Positions 606 to 1,629 of a DNA stretch of 10,682 bases are shown in pieces; position 1 is the first letter of the stretch, and each line of letters begins with the position of its first letter. Position numbers and translations under genes: made by a program. The notes below the pieces were generated by a model that saw only the letters and a list, made by a program, of their open reading frames with translations, was not told the origin of the DNA and ran no database searches. The DNA is from a virus, in the IMG/VR virus record IMGVR_UViG_3300022654_000395, positions 1 through 10,682 of that record. One strand, 5' to 3'.

Positions 606-683
606 GGCCGCCTCCCGGATTCGAACCGGGATATGCAGGGAGAAAGAACCGAAAGCCCTGACCGTTCCAACGGCTTAGACGGC
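606..683 (-). ncRNA. tRNA-like element (degenerate or pseudo-tRNA). It has a canonical 7-bp acceptor stem, a D-arm and a perfect T-arm, but a 15-nt anticodon loop
   Basis: Minus-strand read: GCCGTCT aa GCCG ttggaa CGGT CAGGG ctttcggttctttct CCCTG catat CCCGG TTCGAAT CCGGG AGGCGGC c. The acceptor stem pairs 7/7 with one G·U. The T-loop TTCGAAT is canonical and G53-C61 is present. Deviations from a real tRNA are A8 instead of U8, a short D-loop, and a 5-bp CAGGG/CCCTG anticodon stem enclosing 15 nt that contain a CTTTC direct repeat. No CCA is encoded. Confidence 0.4.
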
Positions 684-685
684 AT

Positions 686-710
686 AAAAAAAGCACCGGT
701 TGTCCGATGC
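686..710 (-). terminator. Rho-independent terminator downstream of the 65-aa gene
   Basis: Minus-strand RNA GCAUCGG-acaa-CCGGUGC forms a 7-bp stem with one G·U, followed by UUUUUUU. It starts 8 nt after the TGA at 718..720. Confidence 0.6.
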
Positions 711-717
711 TTTGTCA

Positions 718-915
718 TCATTTTTTACTTTTCTTCTTGACCGAAGGGGCAGGATCCGGTGGCGCCTCTTCCTGAAGGATCTGAACAAATCCCATCTCTT
801 CCAGCTTCTTCGCCCTGGATTCTCTCACTTCGTATTCTTCTCCGGCCTTCCGAAGTTGCAGTCCACACTCTCGATCACGGAAATCACGCATGGCTCTGAC
901 TTTTACGTTTTCCAT
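718..915 (-). CDS. Hypothetical small phage protein, 65 aa, with a basic C-terminal tail
   Basis: Track ORF with a strong RBS, GAAAGGAGGcaaaa-ATG. Translation MENVKVRAMRDFRDRECGLQLRKAGEEYEV...KKLEEMGFVQIL resembles a protein fold and is not low-complexity. A faint and unverified resemblance to YqbF-like small head-module proteins (FR.AG...EV plus a Rho-N/SAP-like KKLEEMGF) is noted. Confidence 0.6.
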   Translation of the reverse strand: MENVKVRAMRDFRDRECGLQLRKAGEEYEVRESRAKKLEEMGFVQILQEEAPPDPAPSVKKKSKK

Positions 916-1023
916 TTTTGCCTCCTTTCAGGGTGCATCAGCCTTTGCCGTCTATGCAAGATCTGACTGCGCCGACAAATAGACCGGCGGCATCTGCCTG
1001 CCCATGATGTACAGGTAGACCCG

Positions 1024-1182
1024 TCAGTCCTTGTTAATAAGTTCCAGTTCCTCATCCGTCAACTCCCAGACAGTCTCGACTTCCTGGCTTCCGTCCTGCC
1101 GGTTGGCGATCGTGGCCGGGAGATCGAAGCAGCCTTCAGCTGTATAAGTGGCATTCGAGTATTCTGTTCTGATGGGCTTCAT
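1024..1182 (-). CDS. Hypothetical small protein, 52 aa. The start was reassigned to an internal ATG
   Basis: The track ORF 1024..1218 begins 12 codons upstream, but an AGGAGG RBS (AAAGGAGGaagc-ATG) sits exactly before the ATG at 1182 (MKPIRTEYSNATYTAEG...ELTDEELELINKD). Confidence 0.5.
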   Translation of the reverse strand: MKPIRTEYSNATYTAEGCFDLPATIANRQDGSQEVETVWELTDEELELINKD

Positions 1183-1202
1183 GCTTCCTCCTTTCAGGCA
1201 TG

Positions 1203-1228
1203 AAAAAAGCACCTCCAAACGGAGATGC
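1203..1228 (-). terminator. Rho-independent terminator between the YjcQ-like gene and the 52-aa gene
   Basis: Minus-strand RNA GCAUCUCC-guuu-GGAGGUGC is an 8-bp stem with one G·U, followed by UUUUUU (plus A-run 1203..1208). Confidence 0.5.
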
Positions 1229-1258
1229 CTCCTGTATCAACAACATTGCAATTGTCAT

Positions 1259-1576
1259 TTATGTGATTGTGTCTATTATTCCTTTTGCCATGTTGGCGGC
1301 TTTACGCATCAGGCTGTTTTCTTCCAAATACTCAAGCCCTTTCAGAGTGATCTCTGGCCGCGTAAGAGCAACCCGCGGATAGCCCTGATCCATGCTGTTC
1401 CATGTCTGTGCTCCGCTGATATATCCCTCATTGATCAACATAGCCATAATCCTGCACCACTTGGGTTCTGACAGGCCAAGCCGATCTGCTGAAAGGCTTT
1501 CTTTGTCGAATTCTTCCAGGTCCATAGACTTTTGAAGGATCATTAATATCTTGTATATGATTCGAAAATCCTGCAT
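1259..1576 (-). CDS. YjcQ-family (PF09639-like) protein, 105 aa
   Basis: Track ORF. The spacing ...LSADRLGLSEPKWCRIMAMLINEGYISGAQ......P.ITLKGLEYLEENS matches the YjcQ consensus (…EGYI.G…P.LT.KG..YLKEN) recalled from Bacillus prophage proteins. RBS is GAAAGAAGG. Confidence 0.6.
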   Translation of the reverse strand: MQDFRIIYKILMILQKSMDLEEFDKESLSADRLGLSEPKWCRIMAMLINEGYISGAQTWNSMDQGYPRVALTRPEITLKGLEYLEENSLMRKAANMAKGIIDTIT

Positions 1577-1603
1577 CTCTGCCTTCTTTCGGACATAAGA
1601 AAA

Positions 1604-1629
1604 CCACCCGATCCGCTGGGGAGGGGTGG
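1604..1629 (-). terminator. Probable rho-independent terminator or attenuator after the 53-aa gene
   Basis: Minus-strand RNA CCACCC(C)-13-nt loop-GGGUGG has a GC-rich 6-bp stem, followed by UUUUCUU. It lies immediately after the TAG at 1630..1632. The loop is rather long, hence the moderate confidence. Confidence 0.45.

Follow-up and report, generated by a model that had tools for sequence, protein, structure and literature searches.

Is the interval between the MuF gene and the scaffold gene of a phage a single inserted cassette of independently expressed accessory genes, or a place where genes are exchanged piece by piece? The question is raised by a stretch of viral DNA of 10,682 nucleotides (nt), positions 1 to 10,682 of IMG/VR record IMGVR_UViG_3300022654_000395, referred to here as the window. 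In the window, terS, terL, the portal gene, MuF, p53, YjcQ, p52, p65, a tRNA-like cloverleaf and the scaffold gene follow one another in that order, and all genes, like every other window feature given below, lie on the minus strand. A sequence-only reading had placed a cassette of morons at 606-1629, consisting of three intrinsic terminators, a YjcQ gene, two open reading frames (ORFs) of 52 and 65 amino acids (aa) and a tRNA-like element, and all of these parts are indeed present. In the lambdoid phages, such as HK97 and lambda, a moron is a gene with its own promoter and terminator that has been inserted between late genes. The reading that we favour, with slightly better than even confidence, is a different one. 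The gap would be the accessory slot of a temperate siphophage of Lachnospiraceae, built of three exchangeable pieces that are each closed by a terminator, and the third terminator, the cloverleaf and the scaffold leader would together punctuate the late RNA.

The gene content of the gap differs among close relatives, whose scaffold proteins are 77-89% identical, as a comparison of synteny, which the sequence-only reading had proposed as a check, makes clear. The related loci are numbered with an L. In L011/L095, a MuF of 601 aa is followed by p61, YjcQ and p77, and in L091/L094/L156/L157 a MuF of 861 aa is followed by p58, a reverse-strand winged helix-turn-helix and transmembrane (wHTH-TM) gene and p77. 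The gap of L097 contains a p52-like and a p65-like gene, those of L098, L099 and L101 contain only a p52-like gene behind a short MuF (363-371 aa), and that of L105 contains a p53-like gene, a p52-like gene and then an insert of 2.3 kb. In Brevibacillus phage Osiris, MuF adjoins the scaffold leader with nothing intervening, and in Fusobacterium phage phiPaco six accessory genes stand between the two. DNA homology to six relatives ends inside MuF at ~3100-3200 (at 2403 for L156) and resumes exactly at 697, in the U-tract of terminator 3; between these points it is found only as patches at YjcQ, p52 and terminator 1. The gap is best read as a mosaic hypervariable zone, wider than 606-1629, and not as one inserted cassette, because the variable zone starts inside MuF and is patchy. 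The accessory character that had been claimed for it holds for the variable content and for YjcQ and p65, which are facultative, but not for a single insert, nor for p52, which is conserved in its clade. As a swap zone for accessory genes the gap is real but fairly ordinary.

Three terminators divide this zone. Terminator 1 (1602-1631), after p53, is a hairpin followed by UUUUCUU, with a free energy (dG) of -15.4 kcal/mol and a z of -2.6. Terminator 2 (1206-1233), after YjcQ, is a hairpin followed by UUUUUUC (dG -17.8, z -3.3, with 0 of 200 shuffles as good), and terminator 3 (684-713), after p65, has its hairpin at 713-690, followed by UUUUUUUAU (dG -13.9, z -3.7). All three agree with the definition of an intrinsic terminator, a GC-rich hairpin with an immediate U-tract, termination itself being predicted. 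A strict scan for such hairpins with U-tracts on the sense strand of 29 kb of the phage gave 7 sites: 2 before terS, 3 in the 0.95-kb gap between MuF and scaffold, 1 after the capsid gene and 1 in the tail region. The local enrichment of terminators is real. The occurrence of three within 1 kb had been called unusual, and this does not hold among the relatives, since two to three terminators are usual in the gap across ~60 related contigs. A terminator stands immediately after YjcQ in most related loci, ART-type relatives (named for an ADP-ribosyltransferase domain of MuF, described below) also have one between the small ORF and YjcQ, and nearly every related locus, Osiris excepted, has one directly upstream of the scaffold leader.

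What follows each terminator is short. The distance is 25 nt from terminator 1 to YjcQ, 21 nt from terminator 2 to p52 and 7 nt from terminator 3 to the cloverleaf, and a sigma-70-like scan found no promoter-like site between any of the three terminators and the next start or element. With neither such sites nor room for them, independent regulation of these genes is not indicated. The TTGACA to which attention had been drawn is there, now placed at 1661-1656, and its -10 is weak as described, the best being TATTCA with 3 of 6 matches; the start site would fall inside terminator 1, and the candidate was rejected as a promoter of the cassette. Terminator 1 is 81-85% identical in sequence to terminators of L094 and L158, and the 3' halves of terminators, together with the ribosome-binding linkers that follow them, recur in relatives. 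The three terminators of the window and those of L011, L091, L096, L104, L116 and L126 have a common 3'-half form, GGTGC/GGTGG-TTTTnTnATGCC, and where a gene follows a terminator of this form, GAAAGGAGG comes next. The common 3' halves may be shared junction sequences for the exchange of modules. A separate arrangement was observed in the more distant relatives L103, L106, L107, L115, L117, L119 and L124, in which AGGAGGTGATCCGATTATCTCCC immediately precedes the terminator that lies ahead of the scaffold gene, ~60-130 nt before the scaffold ATG. It is a perfect extended Shine-Dalgarno (SD) complement to the 3' end of 16S rRNA, and after it come an anti-SD-like CTCC and possibly a mini-ORF, an arrangement that resembles the STAB-SD stabilisers.

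The second half of the favoured reading concerns the scaffold gene, of which the 5' part (1-516; PF06810 at 1.3e-40, phrog_194) is contained in the window before the gene runs off its end. The leader of this gene (517-605) is composed of an H-type pseudoknot, a second hairpin, an A-rich tract and a ribosome-binding site at 529-521. In the pseudoknot, stem S1 pairs 605-600 with 586-581 (UCGUCC/GGACGA) and stem S2 pairs 591-587 with 575-571 (UCUCC/GGAGA); hairpin 2 pairs 560-556 with 549-545 (CGAGG-ACUGAA-CCUCG, with ACUGAA as the loop). Among 20 sequences (alignments A2 and A4), compensatory changes are found at 12 of the 16 pairs, and 90.6% of the cells are paired, as against 75.8% in shuffles, none of which (0 of 500) reaches the observed value. 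Although the search model did not include stem S2, its pairs covary as well, 5 of 5, and RNAalifold independently recovers S1 and hairpin 2. When model R2 was searched against ~1 Mb of phage DNA, every significant match was immediately upstream of a scaffold start, ending at the ATG, and the matches include loci with scaffold proteins only 36-56% identical as well as the cultured phages Osiris (NC_028969.1, at ~5096-5187 of that record) and phiPaco (OR492274.1). The leader also occurs at L178 3322-3413 and L179 3416-3510. Upstream of scaffold genes of the PF06810 type, it is shared by phages whose hosts are Lachnospiraceae, Brevibacillus (Osiris) or Fusobacterium (phiPaco). Rfam gave no match on the whole window at E<=1, and on a 281-nt slice only insignificant ones to SAM-II (14.9 bits) and preQ1-II (15.4 bits). 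A pattern scan of metagenomes for the leader yielded 20 stretches, of which roughly half are chance matches.

Judged from these alignments and searches, the leader is a conserved RNA element, previously undescribed, with which the message for scaffold and capsid would begin. The third terminator and the cloverleaf had been counted as parts of the cassette; they belong instead with the scaffold leader, in a conserved terminator-leader unit. The leader also has a conserved AAUG (window ~536-534, in the same column of alignment A4), which precedes the scaffold start by 18-35 nt. A mini-ORF of 2-10 codons begins with it in some lineages and extends up to or across the ribosome-binding site or start codon; elsewhere the AAUG is ACG or out of frame.

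Between terminator 3 and the leader, the cloverleaf (606-683) folds with a 15-nt anticodon loop, an A at position 8 and no CCA, and ARAGORN calls it tRNA-Arg(tcg). Rfam gave no tRNA match on the whole window at E<=1 or on the 281-nt slice at E<=10. In nine variants of the element, 96.3% of the cells are paired and compensatory changes occur at 8 of 21 pairs, including 4 of the 5 T-stem pairs. The acceptor stem, the D and anticodon stems, the T arm, the GG of the D loop and the TTCGA of the T loop are retained. The sole part that varies freely is the anticodon loop, of 7-31 nt, the 7-nt one reading UCCUCCU; the window and 6 of the 8 relatives in alignment A3 carry A at position 8, with U in L130 and L160. 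The discriminator base directly adjoins stem S1 of the pseudoknot. When present, the cloverleaf is always between terminator and leader, and model R3 finds it only there and only in the close clade. Because its loop ranges from 7 to 31 nt, U8 is replaced by A and Rfam gives no match, the element is not a decoding tRNA, and the tRNA-Arg of ARAGORN should be left out of counts of phage tRNA genes. What is kept, namely the acceptor stem, the T arm and the elbow of the D and T loops, is what RNase P and RNase Z recognise, and not what decoding needs. Since the features kept suit these enzymes, the cloverleaf may well be an RNA processing signal. Pairing of a CCUCC loop with the scaffold ribosome-binding site or with the 3' strand of S2 was considered as another function and rejected, since in 7 of 8 lineages shuffles of matched composition gave duplexes of equally good energy.

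At the other end of the gap, the MuF gene (1782-4160) lies immediately downstream of the portal gene and encodes 792 aa, with an N-terminal Phage_min_cap2 domain, a middle HExxH region and a C-terminal ADP-ribosyltransferase (ART) domain at ~1824-2282. Its Pfam matches are PF06152 at 2.6e-35 (residues 8-336) and PF03496 at 1.6e-18. The ART domain matches Lmo0066, C3larvin, Vip2 and Tre1 in the PDB, and its R, STS and QxE motifs are all retained. The small acidic ORF p53 (1630-1791) overlaps the MuF stop and may serve the ART domain as a partner or immunity protein; a homologue of 37% identity is present in L105. The MuF C-terminus and the small ORF are swapped jointly, as the 601-aa MuF with p61 in L011, the 861-aa MuF with p58 in L091 and the ART domain with p53 in the window demonstrate. 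The GC content of the ART domain and p53 is 0.40-0.42 (1500-2400), compared with ~0.50 in the flanks. Additionally, the ART coding sequence contains near its 3' end a promoter-like site, TTGACA-18 nt-TAAAGT (1832-1861), that precedes the start of p53 by ~40 nt, and the ART-type relatives L012 and L044/L062 have TTGACA-18-TATTAT in the identical register, followed by the small ORF, a terminator and YjcQ. The ART domain, p53 and terminator 1 form what looks like the clearest foreign unit of the locus, laid out like a MuF polymorphic toxin with its immunity gene, and this unit is singled out because it alone has both a foreign base composition and a promoter-like site. A role of p53 in immunity is one that we infer.

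MuF polymorphic toxins with a small ORF downstream are a described family in temperate phages (Jamet et al. 2017, PMC5576092). The window shares with the family, as set out there and by Zhang et al. (2012, PMC3482391), a MuF domain directly after the portal gene, a C-terminal domain of toxin type, the ADP-ribosyltransferase being among the classes listed in the two papers, and a small ORF immediately downstream that is exchanged together with the C-terminus among relatives. It differs in that its MuF has an extra HExxH middle domain, in that YjcQ, which PMC5576092 and PMC3482391 do not mention, is regularly linked downstream, and in that a terminator separates the small ORF from YjcQ. Toxin and immunity protein are predicted here from sequence.

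The YjcQ-family winged-helix gene (1259-1576; 105 aa) matches PF09639 at 2.5e-26 (92.1 bits, with a cut-off of 23.3) and phrog_3675; PADLOC and NCBIfam return nothing for it. Remote homology, another check that had been proposed, was informative for this gene, the profile of the family (alignment A5) matching PDB entry 2HGC with an E of 2e-07. In IMG/VR, 80 relatives of YjcQ were found; in most the gene comes after a long MuF, in others it belongs to a tail module. Some 45 loci with a complete MuF (~45) have a long MuF (518-913 aa), a small ORF, YjcQ, a terminator, further small ORFs, a terminator and the scaffold gene, in that order. The linkage of MuF and YjcQ is held in ~60 contigs although their portals share only ~40% identity. 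The protein is highly conserved and under strong purifying selection, with RPEITLKGLEYLEEN invariant. The gene is facultative: it is missing from five short-MuF loci, L098, L099 and L101 among them, and among the close relatives it is found only in the window and in L011/L095. In a group of myophages it lies between the genes for the tail tube and the tail assembly chaperone. Because of this location in the tail module, YjcQ is best regarded as a mobile accessory gene, often but not obligatorily linked to a toxin-bearing MuF. The myophage copies in L045, L055 and L088 (3031-3348 or 6001-6330) are 62% identical to that of the window and have no terminator adjacent.

The remaining two genes differ in how widely they are kept. 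The p52 gene occupies 952-1182, and its 52-aa ORF (1182-1024) ends at an in-frame TGA (1026-1024), beyond which the conserved C-terminal part runs to a TAG at 954-952. Relatives encode 76-90 aa and have R or K at codon 53, where the window has the TGA (GAC-TGA-CGG). Of the near-identical contigs, the 6 that cover p52 all have this TGA; conservation persists through the 23 codons beyond it and the downstream RVYLYIMGRQMPPV is intact, so that either a recent nonsense mutation or UGA read-through would explain it. The cloverleaf as a UGA suppressor for this stop was ruled out, since UCA is not in its loop. The facultative p65 (718-915), a small ORF with a basic tail, matches the Pfam Vault repeat at 27.9 bits (cut-off 27) and phrog_2616. 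Among the close relatives it is found only in the window and L096/L097 (43-45% identity); more distant homologues are in L086-L090 (32-39%), it is missing in L011 and L091, and a large protein database gave just 3 close homologues. A single-sequence AlphaFold model of p65 is one long helix with a predicted TM-score (pTM) of 0.41 and was judged uninformative. The 52-aa ORF and p65 each have a ribosome-binding site of the GGAGG type. Neither PADLOC nor NCBIfam has a match for p53, p52 or p65, and Pfam has none for p53 or p52, with only weak or function-unknown families in PHROGs. In L105, the p52 homologue is separated from the terminator, tRNA-like element and leader by the 2.3-kb insert (1946-3950), which comprises a protease-like gene of 304 aa, two small ORFs and, on the reverse strand, a gene of 225 aa.

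The phage itself is represented by near-identical contigs of ~39.7 kb from several metagenome samples. Its nearest relatives in genome collections are ~40-kb contigs in metagenome-assembled genomes of rumen Lachnospiraceae, and megablast and blastn with window 1-4200 and 560-1800 found no match among GenBank phage DNA. It is probably a siphophage of Lachnospiraceae, and it looks temperate because a divergent pair of CI/Cro-like helix-turn-helix genes is present. Two further observations concern other parts of the window. An 89-aa ORF (4419-4150; phrog_25639, E 4e-18) shares ~167 nt with the 3' end of the portal gene and adjoins the MuF start; it is kept in most relatives by tblastn and is missing from the gene calls of the source contigs. 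Between terS and the gene of a sigma-70/ArpU-like regulator (8341-7901; phrog_36) are tandem strong terminator hairpins at 7863-7833 and 7800-7781 (-22 and -16 kcal/mol). Because two strong terminators stand there in tandem, late transcription seems to need antitermination or a promoter at this point.

How much of the locus, then, behaves like a set of morons? YjcQ and p65 lie between genes that are adjacent in relatives, and hairpins with U-tracts after p53, YjcQ and p65 give each a terminator of its own. The clade-conserved p52 appears not to lie between normally adjacent genes. With the lambdoid morons the locus shares facultative genes between otherwise adjacent genes, a terminator after each and some slot occupants on the opposite strand. 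It differs from them in that only the unit of ART domain and p53 has a promoter-like site upstream and a deviant, low GC content; YjcQ, p52 and p65 have neither, their GC of 0.47-0.52 being like that of the flanks. That a discrete moron cassette was inserted in the late operon, with a terminator per unit and genes independently transcribed from the repressed prophage, is in our judgement unlikely. Variable gene content with a mobile YjcQ, real terminators, the reverse-strand wHTH-TM gene in the same slot of L091/L156/L157, a phage that is probably temperate and the promoter-like site upstream of p53 would all suit such a cassette. However, promoter-like sites and space are lacking after the terminators, the TTGACA has the poor -10 and the misplaced start already described, p52 is conserved clade-wide, three of the genes are like their flanks in GC, and the variable zone reaches, patchily, into MuF. 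The opposite proposal, that YjcQ, p52 and p65 are ordinary head-module genes, minor helpers of assembly or packaging co-expressed with MuF, and that the hairpins grade the transcripts of catalytic versus stoichiometric head proteins, we hold to be no less improbable. It is difficult to reconcile with a YjcQ that most of the closest relatives lack, that gives way to a reverse-strand gene in some and that lies in a tail module elsewhere, with the rarity of p65, with the premature stop tolerated in the p52 of the window lineage, and with Osiris, which is without any of the three genes. On its side are the retention of YjcQ after MuF in so many contigs under strong purifying selection, the conservation of p52 in its clade, and a pre-scaffold terminator that is near-universal even where accessory genes are lacking (L124, L115).

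The cloverleaf could also be a decaying phage tRNA gene or the remnant of an att site, functionless and only incidentally next to terminator 3. The ARAGORN call, genuine tRNA-Met genes elsewhere in some relatives and the dispensability of the element in several lineages are compatible with decay, which we nevertheless think very unlikely: six divergent variants hold ~96% of the pairs, 8 pairs have changed in a compensatory way, among them 4 of the 5 in the T stem, only the anticodon loop is free to vary, the position next to the leader is constant, and the element is in the head module with no integrase nearby. Several points weigh against the accessory slot and punctuating RNA that we favour. 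The p53 protein is unrelated to the small ORFs after other ART-type MuFs (hhalign probability 3%), which rules it out as a member of an immunity family shared with them, and no known immunity domain was found in it with Pfam, PADLOC or NCBIfam. Promoter-like sites in the whole window number 13, compared with 10.4 expected by chance, which is no excess, and the site upstream of p53 overlaps conserved ART codons (LIDK). The cloverleaf is missing in the leader-keeping lineages L096/L097, L102, L103/L106, L139 and L161, so it is not essential for scaffold expression, and Osiris has the leader without any terminator. The proposal also extends from anatomy, variability, covariation and conservation, which are observed, to termination efficiency, read-through, processing, immunity and expression in the lysogen, which we infer.

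The accessory slot with its punctuating RNA could be pictured as follows. The first piece would be the ART domain of MuF with p53 and terminator 1, the second YjcQ with terminator 2, and the third the TGA-interrupted p52, the facultative p65 and terminator 3. Downstream genes would be reached by read-through of the terminators, which is required because the next start or element is only 7-25 nt after each of them. The hairpins may serve as insulators in the lysogen and, during late transcription, as partial terminators or stabilisers of 3' ends. Terminator 3, the optional cloverleaf and the leader with its pseudoknot and hairpin would be the punctuation at which the scaffold-capsid mRNA begins. 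At the cloverleaf, RNase P and RNase Z would cut, and where it is missing an endonuclease might cut in the AU-rich linker. After cleavage, the upstream RNA would end in a hairpin and the scaffold-capsid RNA would begin with the pseudoknot, which may protect the 5' end and could double as a translational operator. A strong terminator also stands after the capsid gene, so that the scaffold-capsid segment would be bracketed by structures.

Signals of both kinds have precedents. Processing signals that resemble tRNA include the tRNA punctuation of mitochondria, the mascRNA of MALAT1 and sites of RNase P cleavage in bacterial operon mRNAs. The window shares with these a cloverleaf without a decoding loop, located between cistrons and exactly at the boundary of RNA segments. 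It differs in being part of a phage late operon, in being optional, and in its place right after a terminator and adjoining a pseudoknot; cleavage would be expected by analogy. The STAB-SD leaders of Bacillus SP82, aprE and cryIIIA and the pseudoknot operator of T4 gene 32 are 5' stabilisers of mRNA or translational operators. For phage P22, a preprint mentions a scaffolding protein that autoregulates translationally (bioRxiv 10.1101/2022.12.13.520362). All of these share with the scaffold leader a structured element at the very start of an mRNA with high expression, followed by an A-rich tract and a ribosome-binding site, and in P22 the regulated gene is likewise the scaffold gene, although of another scaffold family than the PF06810 of the window. 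In sequence and fold the leader is unrelated to any of them, and no Rfam family matches it.

For temperate Firmicutes phages, the cassette is a further example of a known theme, that of accessory genes and MuF polymorphic toxins in head modules. The uncharacterised YjcQ winged-helix family is now linked to MuF toxin loci. The most interesting part is the tRNA-like element with the pseudoknot leader, which vary known mechanisms of RNA punctuation and leaders. More tentatively, and with clearly less confidence, the terminator, optional cloverleaf and leader might be an undescribed class of phage cis-acting RNA that punctuates the late transcript and controls scaffold-capsid output, with a cloverleaf that would recruit RNase P and RNase Z and a pseudoknot that would stabilise the 5' end and be the operator for feedback by a phage protein, possibly the scaffold protein as in P22. 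YjcQ would then be a regular third part of MuF toxin loci. The leader offers a testable RNA handle on how scaffold and capsid reach a high output relative to portal, terminase and MuF, and it bears on RNA-level feedback of scaffold synthesis.

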